Shown here one piece after another: positions 7,110 through 57,493 of a DNA stretch of 64,000 nt (its first letter is position 1; every line of letters starts with the position of its first letter). The position numbers were made by a program, and so were the translations under genes. This DNA is from a virus, in the IMG/VR virus record IMGVR_UViG_3300043392_000054, positions 96,001 through 160,000 of that record. The stretch is one strand, 5' to 3'. The notes under the pieces were generated by a model, which was not told where the DNA came from, made no database searches, and saw only the letters and a program-made list of their open reading frames with translations.

Positions 7110-8552
7110 ATGAATTTCGTAGACGCTTTAAGACAAGAAAATATGACAACCGAGAATGGTATGACTACTAACTCAACGTCACTAAACGCATGTGTTGACA
7201 TGTTCTTTAATATTGGGGCGATGCGAGCTTTAGATAAACAACGTTTAATTGCAGAATTTTCTAAAGCATTTAATGAAGATTCAACAAGAGCATTAAAGAT
7301 TCTTTTTTGGGCTCGTGATGTTAGAGGTGGTGCTGGAGAACGTCAAATCTTTCGTGATATTATTCAATACATGGCTGAAAATCATACATCGGCTCTACAA
7401 AATAACATTCAATATATTCCATTATATGGTCGTTGGGACGACTTATTAAGTTTAGTTGGTACTCGTCTTGAAAAACAAGCATTTGAATTTATTCAAATGG
7501 GTCTTAGTGCTAAAGATGGACTTGCAGCTAAATGGATGCCACGTAAAGGCCAAATTGCTGAAAAATTACGTAAGTTTATGGGCATGTCTCCAAAACAATA
7601 TCGTAAAACATTAGTTAATTTAACTAATGTAGTTGAAACTAAAATGTGTGCAAAAGAATGGGATGCAATCGATTTCGGTAAGATTCCTTCGTTAGCATCA
7701 GCACGTTATCAAAAAGCTTTCGGTAGAAATGCTTATGAAAAATATTCACAATACATTCAATCCTTACAAAAAGGAGAGGCTAAAATTAATGCAGGTGCAG
7801 TATATCCTTATGATGTAGTTAAGTCTTTAAATCATGGAAACTGGGAAGTTGCAAATGAGCAATGGAAAGCTCTACCAAATTGGATGGAAGGCTCGAACGA
7901 AATGTTATTACCATTGGTGGACGTTTCTGGTTCAATGTCAACTTCAGCTGGTGGAAATCCAAATGTGACTTGTATGGATGTTGCAATCTCTTTAGGTCTT
8001 TACATTTCTGAAAAGAATGAAGGTCCTTTTAAAGATGCGTTTATTACATTCTCTGCTAATCCTGAATTACAAGTATTAAGTGGCTCATTAAAGGAACGCT
8101 ACACACAGATGAAAGGTGCCGACTGGGGCATGAACACAAATCTTGAGGCAGCCTTTAAACTGATTTTAAATCAGGCCACTCGTCATTCATTATCTCAAGA
8201 AGATATGCCAAGCAAACTCTTAATCTTATCAGATATGGAATTTGACGAAGCTACAAGTGCTCGAGGAGGTTGGTTTGCTCCAAATGAAGAAAATGTTAAT
8301 TGGAATCCAACTGCACAGCAAATGATTGAACAAATGTATGCAGACGCAGGTTATGCAATGCCTCAAATTGTATACTGGAACATTCAATCCAGAAATGGTG
8401 GTGTGCCAGTTGCATTTGACAAAGAGGGAACTGCTTTAGTATCAGGATTCTCTCCAGCAATTATGACCTCTTTAATTAAAGGTGAAATTACTTCAGCTCA
8501 ACAAATAATGGATACAACCATTATGAGTGAGAGATACGCAAATATTGGTTAA
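7110..8552 (+). CDS. DUF2828-family TROVE/Ro60-like helical + vWA protein
   Basis: TENG..STSLNACVDMFF, ARDVRGGAGER, YGRWDDL, AKWMPR, MIDAS DVSGSM, ILSDMEFD, VYWN. Confidence 0.85.
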   Translation: MNFVDALRQENMTTENGMTTNSTSLNACVDMFFNIGAMRALDKQRLIAEFSKAFNEDSTRALKILFWARDVRGGAGERQIFRDIIQYMAENHTSALQNNIQYIPLYGRWDDLLSLVGTRLEKQAFEFIQMGLSAKDGLAAKWMPRKGQIAEKLRKFMGMSPKQYRKTLVNLTNVVETKMCAKEWDAIDFGKIPSLASARYQKAFGRNAYEKYSQYIQSLQKGEAKINAGAVYPYDVVKSLNHGNWEVANEQWKALPNWMEGSNEMLLPLVDVSGSMSTSAGGNPNVTCMDVAISLGLYISEKNEGPFKDAFITFSANPELQVLSGSLKERYTQMKGADWGMNTNLEAAFKLILNQATRHSLSQEDMPSKLLILSDMEFDEATSARGGWFAPNEENVNWNPTAQQMIEQMYADAGYAMPQIVYWNIQSRNGGVPVAFDKEGTALVSGFSPAIMTSLIKGEITSAQQIMDTTIMSERYANIG

Positions 8553-8565
8553 TATATAAAAATAT

Positions 8566-8616
8566 TGGTTCCTTACAGCAAATTATAAAACTATATGGCT
8601 TAGAAAAGGGGAACCA
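8566..8616 (+). ncRNA. small RNA: terminal stem + UACAGCAA motif (copy A)
   Basis: TGGTTCC (8566-72) pairs with GGAACCA (8610-16); TTACAGCAA follows the 5' strand. Confidence 0.55.
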
Positions 8617-8618
8617 GA

Positions 8619-8869
8619 TGGAACGATACAGCAAAAAGTATCTAAATTCTATGATCAGGTTGGGAACTAGTGTGGAGCGCAAGCGATGAAGCACCCCGAC
8701 GAGACCCGGAGAATAGTGCCCTGGTTTAAAACTAAAAGTCACGTCATCAACTTCTCATTGTAGGTGAAGAAGCCCAAAACCGTCGAAGTATAGTAGACCG
8801 TTGAAGCAGAAGCCGAAGATGTAAAAAGAGATATAGCTGCCGAGCTGAATAAAGACGAACTTCGTTCCA
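8619..8869 (+). ncRNA. ~250-nt structured RNA: terminal stem + UACAGCAA motif (copy B)
   Basis: TGGAACGA (8619-26) pairs with TCGTTCCA (8862-69); TACAGCAA follows; GC-rich with no credible ORF. Confidence 0.55.
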
Positions 8870-8878
8870 GTTAAATTT

Positions 8879-8922
8879 AATCCTGAAAAAAACTTTGAAA
8901 AAAGTTGCTTCAGGATTTTTTT
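8879..8922 (+). terminator. intrinsic terminator
   Basis: AATCCTGAA/TTCAGGATT with inner AACTTT/AAAGTT stem and a T-tract. Confidence 0.6.
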
Positions 8923-8947
8923 ATGTCGAATCTTTTTAGTATATTTA
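8914..8947 (+). promoter_or_regulatory. Bacteroidota sigma70-type promoter
   Basis: TATATTTA at 8940-47. Confidence 0.65.
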
Positions 8948-8969
8948 CAGTATACTAATAAACAAAGAC

Positions 8970-47472: not shown

Positions 47473-47567
47473 AATCATGAGGCCATTGGTTGGCAGCACC
47501 TCCCCAAGGTTGAATCTTAGGATTCTTTATGGCAAAGCTGAAATTGGTTCGAATCCAATCATGATTA
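47473..47567 (+). ncRNA. tRNA-shelled RNA 1 (no canonical anticodon arm)
   Basis: AATCATG/CATGATT acceptor, GCC/GGC D-stem, ATTGG-TTCGAAT-CCAAT T-arm; middle is ACCT/AGGT and GAATC-TTAG-GATTC hairpins. Confidence 0.7.
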
Positions 47568-47949: not shown

Positions 47950-48073
47950 TGTCAAGAGGCGAGAGGAACACGCCCCGAAACATTGATTCAAAACTTTCTG
48001 ACAGAAGAACGGAGTCTCTGCTTTATCAATGTGCTGATGGAGACTATCACTGGTTCGAATCCAGTATTGACAA
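47950..48073 (+). ncRNA. tRNA-shelled RNA 3 with pseudoknot insert
   Basis: TGTCAA/TTGACA acceptor, GCG/CGC D-stem, ACTGG-TTCGAAT-CCAGT; insert ACATTGAT/ATCAATGT crossed by AGTCTC/GAGACT. Confidence 0.7.
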
Positions 48074-48074
48074 C

Positions 48075-48258
48075 TAAAACAACTAACTGATTAACACTAA
48101 ATAGTAACACTATCGGCAGTACGATTCTGCACTAGAAATTGGATTTGATGTGTTATCTCACAGTCTAAGATGTGAATAGTTTAGGTTAATGTAAACATAA
48201 AGTAGCTTATGGCCAAATGTAAAGTGTTTATCCACTTAGAAGGCAGTTAGTTGTTTTA
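48075..48258 (+). ncRNA. ~185-nt orphan structured RNA
   Basis: 15-bp terminal stem TAAAACAACTAACTG/CAGTTAGTTGTTTTA with several internal helices. Confidence 0.65.
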
Positions 48259-48264
48259 AAATAT

Positions 48265-48357
48265 AGTCAGGTGACGGAATGGTAGACGTATTTGGGTTCT
48301 CTGCCCGATACCTTTGTAAAGGCAAAAAGCTTACAGGTTCGAATCCTGTCCTGACTA
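48265..48357 (+). ncRNA. tRNA-shelled RNA 4 (AGTCAGG family; possible CTC loop)
   Basis: AGTCAGG/CCTGACT-A; Leu-type D-arm; TTGGG-TTCTCTG-CCCGA; ACAGG-TTCGAAT-CCTGT. Confidence 0.7.
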
Positions 48358-48371
48358 CAATATTAAAATAC

Positions 48372-48539
48372 GGTCAAGTAGCGGAATGTTTGCACTAGAG
48401 GTTTATTTCTGATGGTGTTGACTTGGTTAAACGCTAAGTAGTAAAGCTAACTACAGACAAAGCTGTGACGGACCCTGAAGTACAAAGGGTTGAAGTAGAA
48501 GATTACGCACGGTTATAGGTTCGAATCCTGTCTTGACCA
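48372..48539 (+). ncRNA. tRNA-shelled RNA 5 (168 nt; inserts in D-loop and anticodon region)
   Basis: GGTCAAG/CTTGACC-A; TAGCGGAATG..TGGTTAAACGCT split D-arm; ATAGG-TTCGAAT-CCTGT. Confidence 0.7.
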
Positions 48540-48612
48540 CAAGGAGTTCCCAATCTCAAGTGCTGGTTAACCTTAAAAAGTTATCCGTATGAGCCCATCA
48601 AAATTGGAATTT

Positions 48613-48692
48613 GCCTGTATCGCATAGCGGCAATTGCGGCTGACTGTAAATCAGCTCCTTCGGGTTCAGAGGTTCGAGTCCTTTTGCAGGCA
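48613..48692 (+). tRNA. tRNA-Tyr(GTA)
   Basis: GCCTGTA/TGCAGGC; GCTGA-CT GTA AA-TCAGC. Confidence 0.95.
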
Positions 48693-48749
48693 CGATTAAA
48701 CAAAAATATTTACGTAAGTATAATTAATACAACTATTAAAATTAAAATT

Positions 48750-48968
48750 ATGACATCTAACGAATTCACTTATTGGTTACAAGGTTTTTTTGAAATTTCA
48801 AAAGCTGCTAATGTAAAAGAACTTGATGAAGTGCAAACTCAAATTATCAAAGACCATTTAGAATTAGTTTTTAAAAAAGAAACACCTAATAGAACATGGT
48901 CCGATACGGGTGGAAATAGAGGCACGTGCGGAACTGCGGGAACTGCGGGAATTCCGTTTGGAATGTAA
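48750..48968 (+). CDS. small conserved phage protein inside tRNA cluster
   Basis: MTSNEFTYWLQGFFE..QIIKDHLELVFKK; 9-nt GCGGGAACT repeats at the 3' end. Confidence 0.7.
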   Translation: MTSNEFTYWLQGFFEISKAANVKELDEVQTQIIKDHLELVFKKETPNRTWSDTGGNRGTCGTAGTAGIPFGM

Positions 48969-48979
48969 GATATTAATTT

Positions 48980-49060
48980 GGGAGTATTGAGCAATTGGTT
49001 GGCTCGCCGGTCTGTAAAATCGGTCCTTCGGGCATGTAGGTTCGAGTCCTACTGCTCCCA
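48980..49060 (+). tRNA. tRNA-Tyr(GTA)
   Basis: GGGAGTA/TGCTCCC; CCGGT-CT GTA AA-ATCGG; variable arm. Confidence 0.9.
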
Positions 49061-49065
49061 CTAAA

Positions 49066-49165
49066 GTATTAGTAATTCAGTGGTAAGACTGGCGTCCCCT
49101 CATGGTTAAGGGCCGAAAAGCTGGGAATAAGACGATCGCCGTTGGTTCGAGTCCAACCTAATACT
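49066..49165 (+). ncRNA. tRNA-shelled RNA 6
   Basis: GTATTAG/CTAATAC; D-loop AGTGGTAA; GTTGG-TTCGAGT-CCAAC; insert CGTC/GACG with CCCT/AGGG hairpin. Confidence 0.7.
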
Positions 49166-49171
49166 TTAAAT

Positions 49172-49242
49172 ACGAGTGTGGTGCAATGGTAGCATTCCGG
49201 TCTCCAAAACCGTCGATGGGAGTTCGAATCTCTCCACTCGTG
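49172..49242 (+). tRNA. tRNA-Trp(CCA)
   Basis: ACGAGTG/CACTCGT, G73; CGGT-CT CCA AA-ACCG. Confidence 0.95.
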
Positions 49243-49305
49243 CAAATAGTTTTACAGGTCGTTCTGTCCTTGGGTTCTATAAATCAAAAATCCTAAAAAA
49301 GGCCA

Positions 49306-49379
49306 GGACTCTTAGCTCAGTTGGTTAGAGCACCCGACTCATAATCGGTAGGTCGTAGGTTCAAGCCCTACAGGGTCCA
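49306..49379 (+). tRNA. tRNA-Ile2-like (CAT)
   Basis: GGACTCT/AGGGTCC; CCGA-CT CAT AA-TCGG; body resembles bacterial lysidine-modified Ile2. Confidence 0.85.
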
Positions 49380-49384
49380 CATTT

Positions 49385-49456
49385 GATTCTTTAGGCTAAC
49401 GGATAAACCTCTCGGCTACGAACCGAGGATTGAATGTTCGAATCATTCAGGAATCA
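49385..49456 (+). tRNA. tRNA-Arg(ACG)
   Basis: GATTCTT/AGGAATC; CTCGG-CT ACG AA-CCGAG. Confidence 0.92.
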
Positions 49457-49462
49457 CAATAT

Positions 49463-49536
49463 TGCGATATGGTAGAGATGGTTTCTTACGGTGCTCTCAT
49501 AAGGCACAGACATTGGTTCAAATCCAATTGTCGCAA
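49463..49536 (+). tRNA. tRNA-Met(CAT)
   Basis: TGCGATA/TGTCGCA; GTGCT-CT CAT AA-GGCAC. Confidence 0.85.
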
Positions 49537-49588
49537 CAAAAGTTTTTACGGTGGTTCTGGTTCTTCAAAAACGCTATCACCTCCACCA

Positions 49589-49662
49589 GACTCCGTAGCT
49601 CAGTTGGTTAGAGCACCTCACTTTTAATGAGGGGGTCAATGGTTCGAGTCCATTCGGGGTCA
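49589..49662 (+). tRNA. tRNA-Lys(TTT)
   Basis: GACTCCG/CGGGGTC; CCTCA-CT TTT AA-TGAGG. Confidence 0.97.
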
Positions 49663-49668
49663 CAATAT

Positions 49669-49762
49669 GCTTCATACACAATTCTGCAATCTCTCAGTTA
49701 AAAGCTGTTGCAGACGTAAATGAATAATCCAACATGGTTATTAGTTGTGAACAATATGAAGC
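49669..49762 (+). ncRNA. orphan structured RNA (multi-way junction)
   Basis: GCTTCATA/TATGAAGC, CACAA/TTGTG, TCTGCAA/TTGCAGA and AATAATC/GGTTATT stems. Confidence 0.65.
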
Positions 49763-49767
49763 TCCAT

Positions 49768-49841
49768 GCACCTTTAGCTCAGTTGGTTAGAGCACCGACC
49801 TGATACGTCGGGGGTCGAAGGTTCGAGTCCTCCAAGGTGCA
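49768..49841 (+). tRNA. tRNA-Ile(GAT)
   Basis: GCACCTT/AAGGTGC; CCGAC-CT GAT AC-GTCGG. Confidence 0.95.
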
Positions 49842-49850
49842 CAATTATAT

Positions 49851-49926
49851 GGTGTTTATCGTCTAACGGTTAGGACGCTGGTTTGTGGTACCAGCAATCT
49901 GAGTTCGATTCTCAGTAGACACCCCA
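49851..49926 (+). tRNA. tRNA-His(GTG)
   Basis: G-1:C73; GTGTTTA/TAGACAC; CTGGT-TT GTG GT-ACCAG; CCA encoded. Confidence 0.95.
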
Positions 49927-49928
49927 AT

Positions 49929-50013
49929 GGAAGTTTGTCCGAGTGGCTTATGGTGACACTTTGCTAAAGTGTTGGATGTAATAGTCCCACAGGTTCGAAT
50001 CCTGTAACTTCCT
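49929..50013 (+). tRNA. tRNA-Ser(GCT)
   Basis: GGAAGTT/AACTTCC; ACACT-TT GCT AA-AGTGT; long variable arm; U73. Confidence 0.92.
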
Positions 50014-50037
50014 CAATGACAAAAACAATCGATAAAA

Positions 50038-50071
50038 GATTTTTATTTATTGAAACTTTTAGTTACATTTA
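50038..50071 (+). promoter_or_regulatory. Bacteroidota sigma70-type promoter
   Basis: TACATTTA at 50064-71. Confidence 0.55.
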
Positions 50072-50104
50072 CAGTATATTAATATATACCAAATTTGACT
50101 TATA

Positions 50105-50485
50105 ATGGGAAATAGCCTGAAAAATGAATTTGCAGCATACGAACATGCATTGGCTGTAAAAGAATTAGGGTTTAATTGGAAGTGTTTTGGCTTCTATGAT
50201 AGTCCAACCCTTCAATTAATGCATTGTATAAACTCTGAGCCTTGGATGGGAAATGCAGTTGTTGCAGCACCGCTAAAAAGTCAACTATTTAGATTCTTTC
50301 GGGAGAAGTATAATCAAAATTCATTTATTGAATTAGTTTATCAAGATGGAATAAAATATGATTATGTTTTATATGCAGATAAAGATGAAGAAGTATGCGG
50401 AAATTTTGGAGATGGACCTTTTAATACTTACGAAGAAGCAGAGAATGCTTGTATCGATAAACTTATAGAACTAGCTAAACAATAA
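50105..50485 (+). CDS. hypothetical protein (paralog of 63561..63932)
   Basis: EF..YE.A.A..ELGF, AAPLK, FREKY, YE.AE..IDKLIELAKQ. Confidence 0.7.
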   Translation: MGNSLKNEFAAYEHALAVKELGFNWKCFGFYDSPTLQLMHCINSEPWMGNAVVAAPLKSQLFRFFREKYNQNSFIELVYQDGIKYDYVLYADKDEEVCGNFGDGPFNTYEEAENACIDKLIELAKQ

Positions 50486-50486
50486 A

Positions 50487-50720
50487 ATGAAAACAAGAAT
50501 TCATGTTAATCAACACAATATTCGTTCAAATAAAACAAAGGGTACAGATTTACCAGTTATAACTATTAAACAGGGTAAAAAAAATACTTATTGTAATGAA
50601 GTAGAAATACTTGGTCCTAGTAAAATTATTTATTCAGGCTCAGGTTGTGATACTGCAGCTTTATTAGGTTGTGGTGCTAGAGTAGTGATAGAAACAGAAT
50701 CAGATGTGATAATTAAATAA
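50487..50720 (+). CDS. conserved phage hypothetical protein
   Basis: RIHVNQHNIRSN..LPVITIK..CGARVVIET. Confidence 0.7.
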   Translation: MKTRIHVNQHNIRSNKTKGTDLPVITIKQGKKNTYCNEVEILGPSKIIYSGSGCDTAALLGCGARVVIETESDVIIK

Positions 50721-50895
50721 ACAATAAATTATGAAATGGTTAGATAGAAATATTTTGTATATTACCTTTGGCTTTTTAGCAGCTTGTATTCTTTTTCAAA
50801 TGTGGTATATTCAAAAATTAAAAAGTGAATTAAAGTTGTTTAATCAAAAACAAATTGTTATGCCAAAAAAATAATTTGAAAATAAAGGCTCAAAT

Positions 50896-50929
50896 ATTTT
50901 TTATTGTCACCGGAATTTAGTAGATTTAC
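50896..50929 (+). promoter_or_regulatory. Bacteroidota sigma70-type promoter
   Basis: TTGTCA...TAGATTTA at 50922-29. Confidence 0.65.
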
Positions 50930-50953
50930 AGTATACTAATAAACAATAAGACA

Positions 50954-51184
50954 ATGACTGAAGAACAAATCTACAACGAGCAACAGGAATACAATCGTTA
51001 CCAAGAGTTGATTAATACAAAGGAAATCTTAACTCAAGAAGAGTATGAACTTTGTAAAGCTTGGAATGCTGATGAGGCTTGGAAATATTTAAATGATATT
51101 GGTAATGGTCAATGGTTAAACATCAACGTTTACTCTGAAGTGGATAAAGAAGAGTTTGACCTTAGAAAGGAAATGGGTTTTTAA
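50954..51184 (+). CDS. hypothetical protein
   Basis: 76-aa ORF after promoter. Confidence 0.65.
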   Translation: MTEEQIYNEQQEYNRYQELINTKEILTQEEYELCKAWNADEAWKYLNDIGNGQWLNINVYSEVDKEEFDLRKEMGF

Positions 51185-51225
51185 TTATTGAAACTATATA
51201 AAAATAGTACATATAATATATACAT

Positions 51226-51297
51226 TGCGGGGAGGACAAATGGTAAGTCGTTAGTCTCATAAGCTAAAGAAGGTAGTTCAATTCTACCCCCACGCAA
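51226..51297 (+). tRNA. tRNA-Met(CAT), initiator-like, bulged acceptor stem
   Basis: TGCGGGG/CCC(A)CGCA; TTAGT-CT CAT AA-GCTAA. Confidence 0.8.
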
Positions 51298-51299
51298 CA

Positions 51300-51514
51300 A
51301 TGAGTAAGAGATACTCAGCAGTCTTTAATCCAAGACTCATTTAACAATGGATAGGGTAATGGACCGGACATCCTAACTATATAAAAAGCCGGTCTCATGG
51401 GGATAAAGGAACGGGGACACGGTTCCTTCCCAGTAAGTGTTGACTTTTTAAGCGGTAAGACGCGTTGGGTTTTTGAAAGCAAAAAACTATAAATATCTAC
51501 CCATCTAGAATCTC
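51300..51514 (+). ncRNA. ~210-nt structured RNA with ACUCAGCA motif
   Basis: GAGAT-ACTCAGCA...ATCTC; GACCGG/CCGGTC, AAGGAAC/GTTCCTT and GGGTA/TACCC helices. Confidence 0.5.
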
Positions 51515-51577
51515 AAGGTGGGGAAAGAAGTTCTGAGGTTGGCGAGCTCTTCTATAAAAAAGCAATCCATCCACTAT

Positions 51578-51692
51578 AGTCAGGTGGCGGAATGGTAAAC
51601 GCAGGTTCGGTGGAGCAAAAGAACTCCATACCAGAGTAAGCAATTAGTTTATGACTAACACCTATTTACAGGTTCGAATCCTGTCCTGACTA
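51578..51692 (+). ncRNA. tRNA-shelled RNA 7 (AGTCAGG family)
   Basis: AGTCAGG/CCTGACT-A; TGGCGGAATGGTAAACGC D-arm; AGGT/ACCT-closed insert with GGAG/CTCC and TTAGT/ACTAA hairpins. Confidence 0.75.
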
Positions 51693-51708
51693 CTAAACAA
51701 ATAACATT

Positions 51709-51897
51709 ATGAGAAAAGAAGAAACATTAATTTTAAGCAGAGAAGATATGATTGCAGCTGTAAGTGATAAAGATGTTCAGCATATTAATTGTTCTGACTT
51801 TAAGATTGATAGTAACCTATTTCAAAAAAGTAGTATTGTTTTGTTCATAGACGATAATAATCAATCTAAGATTCTTAAAAACCGATACGGCTTATAG
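51709..51897 (+). CDS. small hypothetical protein flanked by duplicated T-arm/acceptor 3' half
   Basis: 62-aa ORF; stop codon overlaps ATAGG-TTTGAAT-CCTGT-TTTGACTA. Confidence 0.6.
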   Translation: MRKEETLILSREDMIAAVSDKDVQHINCSDFKIDSNLFQKSSIVLFIDDNNQSKILKNRYGL

Positions 51898-51918
51898 GTT
51901 TGAATCCTGTTTTGACTA
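51894..51918 (+). repeat. orphan 3' half of AGTCAGG-family shell
   Basis: Imperfect direct repeat of 51668-51692. Confidence 0.65.
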
Positions 51919-51920
51919 CG

Positions 51921-52056
51921 GTTCTGTGCTGCCTGAACGTACAGAAGGTTTTAAGTGACCTTGCTTAGATACTTAATGACTGATGGAAAGACATCGAATT
52001 CAATAGTACCTGAACAGTTAAATAGAGTGGGTATCCGCACAAAATGCTATTGAATT
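51921..52056 (+). ncRNA. orphan structured region
   Basis: TTCTGT/ACAGAA, AAGGT/ACCTT, GATG-GAAAGA-CATC and 10-bp AATTCAATAG/CTATTGAATT stems. Confidence 0.45.
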
Positions 52057-52060
52057 ATTT

Positions 52061-52150
52061 AGTCAGGTGGCGGGAGTCTACACGGAGGCATCTGTGTGTT
52101 GGTTCGAGTCCAACGAGGTGTAAATACAGGTTCGAATCCTGTCCTGACTT
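52061..52150 (+). ncRNA. tRNA-shelled RNA 8 (AGTCAGG family) with a nested second T-arm
   Basis: AGTCAGG/CCTGACT; insert TACAC/GTGTA contains GTTGG-TTCGAGT-CCAAC. Confidence 0.7.
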
Positions 52151-52153
52151 CAA

Positions 52154-52244
52154 AATAATTAGAGAGAATGTGGGTTCGAATCCCACCTGGGCTGTCCGGT
52201 GAGGAGGGCCCGGTAGTGGAAAGGGACAAAGCACTCTATTTATT
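52154..52244 (+). ncRNA. circularly permuted tRNA-like RNA (YrlA/Y-RNA architecture)
   Basis: Terminal stem AATAATTAGAG/CTCTATTTATT; T-arm GTGGG-TTCGAAT-CCCAC; loop-closed acceptor CTGGGCT/GGCCCGG; TA + D-like GG loop. Confidence 0.6.
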
Positions 52245-52263
52245 AAAGTATTGTAATAAACAT

Positions 52264-52350
52264 AGTCGGGTGACGGAGAGGAAACGCATGGTAAGACGCG
52301 TAATTACTTACACGGCTCACCACACACAGGTTCGAATCCTGTCCTGACTA
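52264..52350 (+). ncRNA. tRNA-shelled RNA 9 (AGTCAGG family)
   Basis: AGTCGGG/CCTGACT-A; TGGT/ACCA-closed insert with GTAAG/CTTAC hairpin. Confidence 0.7.
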
Positions 52351-52545
52351 CAATGTATCAAATGTGCAGTGAAAATTAGTGTAGGCATACATTGATGAGG
52401 TGGGTTCGATTCCCGTTTAATAATTCCTAACTATGGAGGAAGCCAAGTAGCTGAGAACACATTATAGCCGGAATGGGTTGTGCACCTTGTCTAAGAGACC
52501 CTAATAGTTCCTAATAGGTCGGTATGGAACTGATACATAGTAATA

Positions 52546-52680
52546 TAGGTTGATTGGGGAATGGTTATGTCGATAGTTCGAGAGTGAATGCTGACTGACA
52601 TAATCGGAGTTTAGAAGTATTCACCATAGTAAAGCCAATCATAAAAGTAGATGTCCACTGAACCATCTTCTACTTTCCTA
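52546..52680 (+). ncRNA. orphan pseudoknotted RNA
   Basis: TGATTGG/CCAATCA; GGTTATGTC/GACATAATC crossed by GTGAATGCT/AGTATTCAC; AAAGTAGA/TCTACTTT. Confidence 0.6.
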
Positions 52681-52685
52681 ATAAA

Positions 52686-52804
52686 TAAGAGGCGGTGAAA
52701 GCTGTAATGATGAGCTTACGAGGTTAAGGTTTGAAAAAGGGTTAATAGTACGACTTAAAGCCTGCACTCATCATCAGTAACCCTGAAAGACCCGTAGCCT
52801 CTTA
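52686..52804 (+). ncRNA. orphan structured RNA
   Basis: TAAGAGGC/GCCTCTTA and ATGATGAG/CTCATCAT stems, GAAA loops. Confidence 0.6.
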
Positions 52805-52807
52805 ATT

Positions 52808-52948: not shown

Positions 52949-53087
52949 GATTCTATAGTTGTTTAGGTCGCTCCGAAAACAACGAGTGGGTTAATGATGG
53001 TTTAATATTACTGTCCAATATTCTAGATAAAGTGATAAGTGATTAAACAAGTAATTAACAAGATGGGTTCGATTCCCATTAGAATCG
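52949..53087 (+). ncRNA. tRNA-shelled RNA 10 (139 nt)
   Basis: GATTCTA/TAGAATC-G; 7-bp D-stem GTTGTTT/AAACAAC; ATGGG-TTCGATT-CCCAT; AT-rich nested insert. Confidence 0.65.
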
Positions 53088-56071: not shown

Positions 56072-57331
56072 ATGCTAAATATTAATTTTATTAAACAAAA
56101 TGCAGATTTTGTTAAGGAAAGACTTTTATTCAAAGGATTTAAAGATATTAATCTTGTAGATGACCTAATAGACGCATCTAAAGATAAGCATGCATTACAG
56201 CAAAAAAGTGAATTGATTCAATATGAAATCAATCAAGTTTCAACACAAATCGGTGTTTTATTTAAAAACGGAGAGGATGTTACTAAATTAAAGGCATCTA
56301 TTTCACCACTTAAACAAGATTTAGTAGTTTTAGTAGAAGATATACGTCAACTTGAAGATAAAATACAAAATATTTTATATCAATTACCAAATCTACCTAA
56401 TGAAGAGGTTCCTTATGGTGAAAGTGCTGAACAAAATGAAGTAGTGTACCAAGAAGTAGTTAATACAGAAAAAGCTCCTTTAGCACAATATGATTTAATT
56501 GAAAAATATAATTTAGTTAATTTTGAATTAGGTTCTAAAATTACAGGTCGTGGATTTCCAGTTTTTATTGGAGATGGTGCAAAATTACAAAGAGCATTAA
56601 CCCAATACTTTTTAGATTTTAATACTAATGCAGGTTATTTAGAATACATTCCGCCATTTATGGTAAATGAAGACTCAGCTTTAGCAACTGGTCAATTACC
56701 TGATAAAGATGGACAGATGTACTATATGGAAAAAGATGAACTTTATCTAATTCCAACTGCTGAGGTACCTGTAACAAATGTTTATCGAGATACTATTATT
56801 AAAGAGTCAGATTTACCAATTAAAATGACAGCACATTCTCCTTGTTTTAGAAGAGAAGCTGGTAGTTTTGGTAAAGAAGTTAGAGGATTGAATAGAGTAC
56901 ATCAATTTGAAAAGGTTGAAATCATTCAGATTGCGCATCCTGAAAAGAGTGAAACTGCATTAAATGAAATGGTTGAGCATGTTAAAAATTTGTTAGAATC
57001 TCTAGAATTACCATATAGAATTTTAAAATTGTGTAGCCATGATATGAGTTTTACCTCAGCTATTACTTATGATTTTGAAGTTTGGAGCCCAGGTCAACAA
57101 ATGTGGTTAGAAGTAAGTTCAGTTTCTAATTTCAATACATATCAAACGCATAGAATGAAATGTAGATTTAAAGACCAGAATGGTAAAATGCAAAATCCGC
57201 ATTCTTTAAATGGTAGTGCATTAGCTTTACCAAGAATTTATGCAGCTTTAATTGAAACATTCCAAACAGAAAGGGGTATAAAGATACCAGAGGTGTTAAA
57301 GCCTTATTTTGGAAAAGATTATATAGAGTAA
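56072..57331 (+). CDS. serS: seryl-tRNA synthetase
   Basis: N-terminal coiled coil, LPNLP, GQLP, LIPTAEVP, CFRREAG, RVHQFEKVE, EVSSVSN and LNGSALA motifs. Confidence 0.97.
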   Translation: MLNINFIKQNADFVKERLLFKGFKDINLVDDLIDASKDKHALQQKSELIQYEINQVSTQIGVLFKNGEDVTKLKASISPLKQDLVVLVEDIRQLEDKIQNILYQLPNLPNEEVPYGESAEQNEVVYQEVVNTEKAPLAQYDLIEKYNLVNFELGSKITGRGFPVFIGDGAKLQRALTQYFLDFNTNAGYLEYIPPFMVNEDSALATGQLPDKDGQMYYMEKDELYLIPTAEVPVTNVYRDTIIKESDLPIKMTAHSPCFRREAGSFGKEVRGLNRVHQFEKVEIIQIAHPEKSETALNEMVEHVKNLLESLELPYRILKLCSHDMSFTSAITYDFEVWSPGQQMWLEVSSVSNFNTYQTHRMKCRFKDQNGKMQNPHSLNGSALALPRIYAALIETFQTERGIKIPEVLKPYFGKDYIE

Positions 57332-57334
57332 CAT

Positions 57335-57493
57335 TGTAGTGTGGCGAAATGCGTACGCTCGGCAGACGCACCCTCCTGTCTCGGGGGTGAGGAGTTCAAA
57401 ATAAAGTAAGGATATCGGGGTAGACCACCAGCTTGCAAGCGCTATTGTCCTTTACCTAATTGCCTCGTGGTGGTTCGACTCCACCCACTACAG
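57335..57493 (+). ncRNA. giant tRNA-like RNA (GTC anticodon, ~80-nt variable arm, G73) directly after serS
   Basis: TGTAGTG/CACTACA-G; Leu-type D-arm with GCGT/ACGC insert; CCCTC-CT GTC TC-GGGGG; GGTGG-TTCGACT-CCACC. Confidence 0.75.

Follow-up and report, generated by a model that had tools for sequence, protein, structure and literature searches.

Why does a phage keep, inside an array of transfer RNA (tRNA) genes, a set of elements that share the ends of a leucine tRNA but have nothing in common in between? The elements belong to the IMG/VR phage record IMGVR_UViG_3300043392_000054 (182.8 kb, estimated to be 64% complete). We analyzed bases 96001–160000 of this record, a stretch of 64,000 nt that is referred to as the window and to which the positions below apply. 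ARAGORN finds 26 tRNA genes window-wide, and a tRNA array occupies one strand at 46.6–53.9 kb. On the same strand as the array tRNAs lie five elements in which near-identical ends (the shell) enclose different middles (the cargo). We lean, with moderate confidence, towards reading them as non-decoding RNA genes built on a leucine-tRNA frame, where a stable frame carries folded cargo modules and recombination takes place at the shell halves.

Five Elements With One Shell

The shell elements, and one isolated part of a shell, are as follows.

48265..48357, plus strand: shell element with an AGTCAGG/CCTGACT acceptor stem, Leu-type D arm, T arm and A73.
48372..48539, plus strand: variant shell element with a GGTCAAG/CTTGACC acceptor stem, a hairpin insert in the D loop, a cargo of ∼90 nt, T arm and A73.
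51578..51692, plus strand: shell element whose anticodon and variable arms are replaced by a 65-nt cargo of three helices; A73.
51894..51918, plus strand: orphan degenerate 3′ half-shell (T arm and 3′ strand of the acceptor stem, with four C-to-T changes), recognized by eye and unscored.
52061..52150, plus strand: shell element with a disrupted D arm and a two-hairpin cargo, one hairpin of which resembles a second T arm; discriminator T.
52264..52350, plus strand: shell element with AGTCGGG (G·U wobble) as its 5′ strand and a D arm that is degenerate; the cargo is an imperfect hairpin of 37 nt; A73.

The T-arm/acceptor end of the shell is an exact 23-mer, CAGGTTCGAATCCTGTCCTGACT, at 48334, 51669, 52127, and 52327, with a copy containing three mismatches at 48516. 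No copy is expected by chance (100 shuffles). A complementary 5′ strand is found 87–168 nt upstream of every copy (n = 5). It reads AGTCAGG at 48265, 51578, and 52061, while AGTCGGG at 52264 results in a G5·U68 wobble. At 48372, GGTCAAG pairs with CTTGACC, and two base pairs have therefore changed on both sides. The shared AGTC(A/G)GG ends described by an earlier reading of the sequence (the original prediction) are thus real, being tied to the exact 23-mer in four elements and compensated in the 48372 variant.

The same prediction had assigned A73 and a leucine-type D arm to most of the elements. A73 is present in four of the five. A D arm of the Leu type (GGCGGAATGGTAGACGC type) can be read clearly in 48265 and 51578 and is split by the D-loop insert in 48372; it is degenerate in 52264 and disrupted in 52061, which also has a T in place of A73. 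The T arm with its TTCGAAT loop is invariant across the elements. As predicted, every middle is different, and all five are mutually unrelated. Minimum free energy folds close the 7-bp acceptor stem in all five cases, with z-scores from -1.4 to -2.4.

tRNA models see the shell only in part. The Rfam tRNA model matches 48265 (44.5 bits), 51578 (44.5 bits), and 52264 (30.9 bits) while skipping 30–55 nt at the place of the anticodon arm, which in the alignment of 51578 is replaced by a 55-nt insert; it does not report 52061 and 48372. ARAGORN calls only 48265 among the five, as an odd 94-nt ‘tRNA-Glu(ctc)’ with a CTC loop and a T at position 37. The orphan half-shell at 51894–51918 has no 5′ partner strand and overlaps the stop codon of the open reading frame (ORF) at 51709–51897.

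Conserved Positions and Absence of Decoding Features

Conservation in the wider family was determined from ∼230 unique copies (229 for the discriminator). Across 230 unique copies, the acceptor and T stems hardly ever fail to pair, and compensated variants are found occasionally. U8 is kept in 96% and A14 in 83% of the copies, the D-loop GG is usual, and a T stands two bases before the T stem, at the place of U48, in ∼70%. At the ends of the frame, A73 is found in 91%, T at position -1 in 76%, and C74 in 98%. The true tRNAs of the window's array resemble the family in these end positions and likewise have C74, with CCA not encoded. About half of the copies follow the strict Leu D-arm pattern, and the commonest D arm from U8 to C25 corresponds, by the Escherichia coli sequence, to the D arm universal in bacterial tRNA-Leu.

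The cargo is located between position 26 and the T stem. A minority of elements, 48372 among them, have a second insert in the D loop, and insert lengths range from 20 to 130 nt. An intact shell is seen in 253 of 265 copies; it is the middles alone that differ. When introns were allowed, ARAGORN made calls in 156 of the 230 real elements; after shuffling of the middles it still made 150. Its assigned anticodons are scattered over all amino acids, and Leu anticodons were not enriched among the 230 elements relative to the shuffled control. The group I intron model of Rfam (Intron_gpI) had no match in the window array or in any element. With U-1, U8, A14, GG, A73, and C74 kept, the elements look tRNA-like in their processing and would be unable to decode.

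A Phage-Borne Family From Freshwater

The exact 23-mer was found in at least 120 viral contigs with at least 157 copies, nearly all of which have AGTCAGG 53–181 nt upstream. Among ∼185,000 species genomes it occurs in only 18, all of them short metagenome-bin contigs of which about half are labelled Bacteroidota, and no copy was found in the isolated phages of the GenBank set searched. This near-restriction to phage contigs argues against the shell being a host tRNA or an attachment site. The 27 larger records that carry shells hold 1–11 copies each, nearly all co-oriented; seven of them, with a completeness of 90% or more, span sizes of 65–270 kb. The runs holding shells are freshwater or aquatic metagenomes. 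Our literature searches did not recover a description of the shell family, and Rfam has no family for it. Judged from sequence, the shells are a large phage-borne sub-family of putative anticodon-less RNAs that are framed by tRNA-Leu and have a modular cargo.

Structured Cargos

The 239 unique elements fall into ∼200 unrelated cargo clusters, 174 of which are singletons. In clusters with several members, helices change on both sides and almost no pairs are broken, and the cargo helices are evidently under selection. In the 43-nt middle of 48265, two hairpins are seen, of which one, with loop TTCTCTG, is anticodon-like. This cargo is 90% identical to copies in contigs L018 and L021, where the flanks are unrelated, and a compensated A-T to G-C pair relative to these copies confirms the anticodon-like hairpin.

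Scans of the viral contigs with two of the other cargos found single relatives and no wider families. For the 51578 cargo the only close copy is in L025 (97% identity); 29 other matches to the core of this cargo proved to be chance matches in coding DNA. The 52061 cargo has its only relative in L037 (82% identity), and the 16-mer T arm inside it is identical to the T arm of the shell at 49066–49165.

Another shell is found at 47951–48074, with a TGTCAAG/ATTGACA acceptor and the T stem ACTGG/CCAGT (see also L096 and L145:5005-5138). Its cargo recurs in L092 within a shell of the CCTGACT type, so one cargo occupies two different shells. The CUGAUGG and GAAAC boxes of this cargo had suggested a hammerhead, which was rejected as the helix order does not fit.

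Cargo Exchange Between Related Phages

The original prediction regarded the identical ends as a possible scaffold for swapping cargo, and syntenic loci of related phages as the place where this should be visible. L145 is such a relative (its M42 aminopeptidase is 94% identical), and the identities between the window and L145 along the locus are listed here.

Upstream non-coding region, 51297–51577: 87%.
51578 element: 5′ shell 88%, cargo 37%, 3′ shell 100%.
ORF-bearing spacer between the 51578 and 52061 shells: 45%.
52061 element: 5′ shell 100%, middle 32%, 3′ shell 92%.
Downstream: 94–96%.

L145 has a different cargo of 34 nt in the 51578 slot and a different middle of 130 nt in the 52061 slot. 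Whole elements also come and go. The element at 52264–52350 is a clean 98-nt insertion or deletion relative to L145, with flanks that are 94–96% identical. The block 48075–48517 with two elements is missing from L145, which instead has two other AGTCAGG elements ahead of the neighboring shell, and run X17 contains the joint 47961→48519. A DNA contig from another study (run X2) follows 50920–51602 with 12 differences in 683 bases; beyond 51602 it continues with ∼72 other bases and then the 3′ shell, and this is likely a third cargo at the 51578 slot.

The same cargos also turn up in other surroundings. Among pairs of elements from different contigs that share a cargo (75–100% identical, n = 41), neither 60-nt flank is above random similarity in 28 pairs and both are in only 4. 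Together with the profile of L145, in which flanks and shells are kept around unrelated cargo, these 28 pairs with unrelated flanks argue that cargos are replaced within constant shells and that whole elements change contexts. The idea of a recombination scaffold is therefore supported by both comparisons. As the record, at an estimated 64% of the genome, has no reverse transcriptase, a diversity-generating retroelement is unlikely. The nine ORFs scanned at 44.7–55.7 kb include neither homing-endonuclease families nor a recombinase. Exchange would proceed by plain homologous recombination through the shared shell halves of ∼25 bases.

The Preferred Explanation and Its Difficulties

The reading of the elements as non-decoding RNA genes on a leucine-tRNA frame draws on observations made here: the way they are built, a phage-only distribution, the missing decoding features, selection on cargo helices and exchange at shell borders. 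The frame is made up of the 7-bp acceptor stem, the D/T elbow, U-1, A73, and C74. By analogy with engineered tRNA scaffolds, it would let host RNase P, 3′ trimming and CCA addition release a stable, L-shaped RNA. The variable middle, which we take to be the working part, would be a folded module that the RNA displays instead of an anticodon arm and a variable arm, and in some cases the D loop would hold another. The ∼25-base shell halves, being common to many phages, might act as portable homology for the exchange of cargos and whole elements. What we infer is that the RNAs are processed and stable, that the host leucyl-tRNA synthetase (LeuRS) may charge them with leucine and that the cargos have binding partners.

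Several results weigh against this explanation. The shells are identical base for base across phages of 65–270 kb, which is more than a purely structural scaffold would need. A shared cargo motif was not found: the k-mers enriched among 194 cluster representatives all came from displaced pieces of the D arm. When the five cargos were searched as antisense against the phage's own 183 kb, the longest matches did not exceed those of shuffled cargos. In Rfam searches with permissive thresholds, covering the window and 27 array-bearing loci, the elements match tRNA only. No phage protein was seen to accompany the shells: neither this record nor any of the 27 other shell-bearing records has a LeuRS. 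This phage does encode a CCA-adding enzyme of the PolyA_pol family (G000:C1:92719-93129), but only two of the 27 other records do, and the enzyme is therefore not a family partner.

The RNA libraries do not lift these difficulties. Contigs of three metatranscriptome libraries cover parts of all elements, and one of 323 nt corresponds to 52250–52572 without a difference. The cover consists of assembled contigs, in which DNA carry-over is possible and RNA ends are not visible, and we do not count it as proof of transcription because such assemblies may contain DNA. The ORFs at 50.0–51.1 kb have an apparently low cover in the RNA runs, again in terms of assembled contigs, to which we attach no meaning. 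Other candidate partner genes, namely TROVE (PF05731), SmpB, L/F-transferase, and RtcB, are, like LeuRS and reverse transcriptase, absent from the record at its estimated 64% of the genome. The core of a class II aminoacyl-tRNA synthetase is found at 56729–57259 of the window.

Charging and Other Alternatives

Along the lines of the original prediction, the shells could be charged mimics: the host LeuRS would leucylate them and their function would depend on the aminoacyl end. Variants of this explanation are EF-Tu-bound non-decoders, ribosome entrants similar to transfer-messenger RNA (tmRNA), leucine donors, and sinks for LeuRS or EF-Tu. For bacterial LeuRS, A73 and the core formed by U8-A14, G18-U55, and G19-C56 are critical, deletion of the anticodon stem-loop costs only 2.5-fold in affinity, and the variable arm's orientation and a regular acceptor helix matter (PMC2377443). 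The recognition rules assumed in the prediction agree with these determinants as regards A73, the elbow core and the dispensable anticodon arm. Because the shells keep A73, U8-A14 and the G18G19/T-loop core, charging is plausible for most of them, and the order 5′ acceptor, D arm, insert, T arm, 3′ acceptor is the topology of tmRNA. On the other hand, the cargos differ wildly and may upset the variable-arm orientation that LeuRS needs, 52061 with its T73 and broken D arm is a poor candidate, and A73 and the elbow would also be expected as a remnant of an ancestral tRNA-Leu. The record lacks not only LeuRS but also SmpB and L/F-transferase genes, neither ARAGORN nor Rfam finds a tmRNA, and the lack of LeuRS in this and the 27 other records means that any charging would be done by the host enzyme. 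We consider it rather unlikely that the function of the shells depends on a charged end.

It is less likely that the shells are decoys whose tRNA-like top half draws host tRNA-targeting nucleases or sensors away from the real tRNAs. The shell does resemble a class II tRNA, and recent work ties phage tRNA arrays to anti-defence, e.g., Septu cleaving tRNA-Tyr (PMC13096335). A bait for anticodon- or variable-loop nucleases should nevertheless keep the loop, which here differs in ∼200 ways, and the selection on cargo helices would be left unexplained. The breakpoints at shell borders, the orphan half-shell at 51894–51918 and the wholesale replacement in L145 of an ORF-bearing segment between two shells could all be taken to mean that shells act only as DNA, as integron-like recombination sites that shuffle cassettes including small ORFs, with the RNAs as by-products. 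This is quite improbable given that cargos have compensatory substitutions and are 90–100% conserved across unrelated contexts, that the full tRNA tertiary signature is kept along with the processing signals U-1 and C74, and that the array ORFs scanned include no recombinase or homing endonuclease. Very improbable, finally, are decaying tRNA-Leu duplicates and intron-containing or split tRNA-Leu genes. The tRNA-Leu ancestry of the elements, their location in a tRNA array and the anticodon-like hairpin still seen in 48265 would fit such an origin, but decay would not leave 253 of 265 shells intact with the middles alone differing. The middles are often longer than that of a tRNA, and structured, and they show no Leu anticodon enrichment over the shuffled control. 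Inserts of 20–130 nt are furthermore too short for group I introns, in line with the absence of Intron_gpI matches in the elements.

Neighboring Features

A tRNA with a CAT anticodon at 51227–51296 was missed by ARAGORN and is matched by Rfam with 47.5 bits; one position of its acceptor stem is unpaired. The non-coding region of ∼280 nt at 51297–51577 bridges this tRNA and the 5′ end of the 51578 shell. It has 87% identity to L145 and partial homologs in L056, L134, L060, L080, L021, and L016, is without an Rfam match and is covered by RNA-library contigs. A second long non-coding region at 52354–52802 has 95.7% identity to L145 and a T-loop-like hairpin near 52400. It also has no Rfam match, and RNA-library contigs are identical to the window over 52250–52807. 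The ORF at 51709–51897/51919 has 62 codons and no family match, and its stop lies inside the degenerate orphan 3′ half-shell. In L145, the shells that correspond to those flanking 51709–51919 enclose another small ORF.

Other tRNA-shaped elements with different acceptors are found at 49066–49165, 47473–47567, 52949–53087, and 57335–57493, with the discriminators T, A, G, and G, respectively. Further away, a DUF2828/DUF7788 protein (E 1e-33 and 9e-55) is encoded at 7110–8552 and followed by ∼400 nt of non-coding sequence (8553–8960). Two observations concern other shell-bearing phages. L021:4124-4186 matches freshwater-1 RNA (RF02979) with 70.1 bits against a gathering threshold of 72 (E 4e-14); the match lies inside the tRNA array and is free-standing, outside any shell. 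In the viral contig L014, a group I intron match (97.8 bits) abuts a tmRNA match (49.2 bits) at 7609–8193, which may be an intron-interrupted phage tmRNA.

Relation to Known RNAs and Implications

Phage tRNA clusters have long been known to hold ‘stable RNAs of unknown function,’ such as species 1 and 2 of T4 and RNA1 and RNA2 of T5. The closest known RNAs are RNA1 and RNA2 of T5 (AY543070), annotated as misc_RNA, ‘tRNA-like stable RNA with unknown functions.’ Like the shells, they lie inside a tRNA cluster on the tRNA strand and have an acceptor-like stem and a T arm without an anticodon arm. In RNA1 the D arm is Leu-type (GCCGGAATTGGTAGACGG) and the insert measures ∼85 nt. RNA2 has 17 T-arm bases in common with the shell and an inner T-loop hairpin, as in some cargos. 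Both differ from the shells in their acceptor sequences and inserts; they show no homology to the cargos and are single copies. They are also documented as stable RNAs and not known as a family with many cargos, whereas the shells are known here from genes and assembled contigs. Another small stable RNA, species 1 of T4 (rnaC), lies at the end of the T4 tRNA cluster and has a canonical T arm next to its 3′ end, but by eye its acceptor strands pair imperfectly and it shows no D arm of the Leu type. T4 rnaD has no obvious T arm.

Although it lacks an anticodon, charged tmRNA (RF00023) gains entry to the ribosome. Its resemblance to the shells lies in a tRNA-like domain that the two ends build together, the D-analogue and the T arm being separated by a large insert. 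The G3·U70 alanine identity of tmRNA is, however, absent from the shells, of which 226 of 230 copies have T-A at 3–70. Nor was a tag reading frame recognized in the shells, whose inserts are far shorter and hypervariable. ARAGORN calls no tmRNA in the window, and matches to RF00023 are restricted to T-arm fragments of 13–17 nt; SmpB, as stated, is missing from the record.

The non-coding RNA YrlA (RF02553) contains a tRNA-like module and is found in phages too (PMC4201824). Its ends form a Ro-binding stem, while those of the shells form an acceptor stem. RF02553 gave only sub-threshold matches (21–23 bits against a gathering threshold of 69) that lie beside the elements and not on them, and TROVE (PF05731) has no match anywhere in the record. 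A 2026 preprint on bacterial tRNA mimics deals with other motifs that are not derived from tRNA. The best analogy for the mechanism is the engineered tRNA scaffold, in which an RNA is embedded in a tRNA body for folding, processing and stability (Ponchon and Dardel, 2007, as cited in PMC4923196). The engineered scaffold is artificial, keeps the anticodon stem and swaps only the loop. The cargo of a shell, by contrast, takes the place of the entire anticodon and variable region, and in some shells the D loop is used as well.

A bolder interpretation, to which we would give a small chance, is that freshwater phages trade a library of hundreds of RNA modules in one host-processed and host-charged Leu-tRNA frame. 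Such a library would parallel integron cassettes at the level of RNA. The frame would see to maturation and stability and might open the way to LeuRS, EF-Tu or the ribosome; the cargos would serve as effectors, e.g., aptamer-like inhibitors of host defence or of translation factors, passed between phages through recombination at the shell halves.

The sub-family suggests that stable RNAs of the T4 and T5 type are not oddities, as a constant frame with ∼200 structured inserts is found in many uncultured phages. For annotation, it means that tRNA finders miss such genes or call bogus tRNAs with random anticodons. The shells are also natural designs for RNA scaffolding. An old loose end of phage biology is thereby turned into testable questions: whether these RNAs are charged, what their cargos bind, and whether phages carry a modular RNA arsenal.

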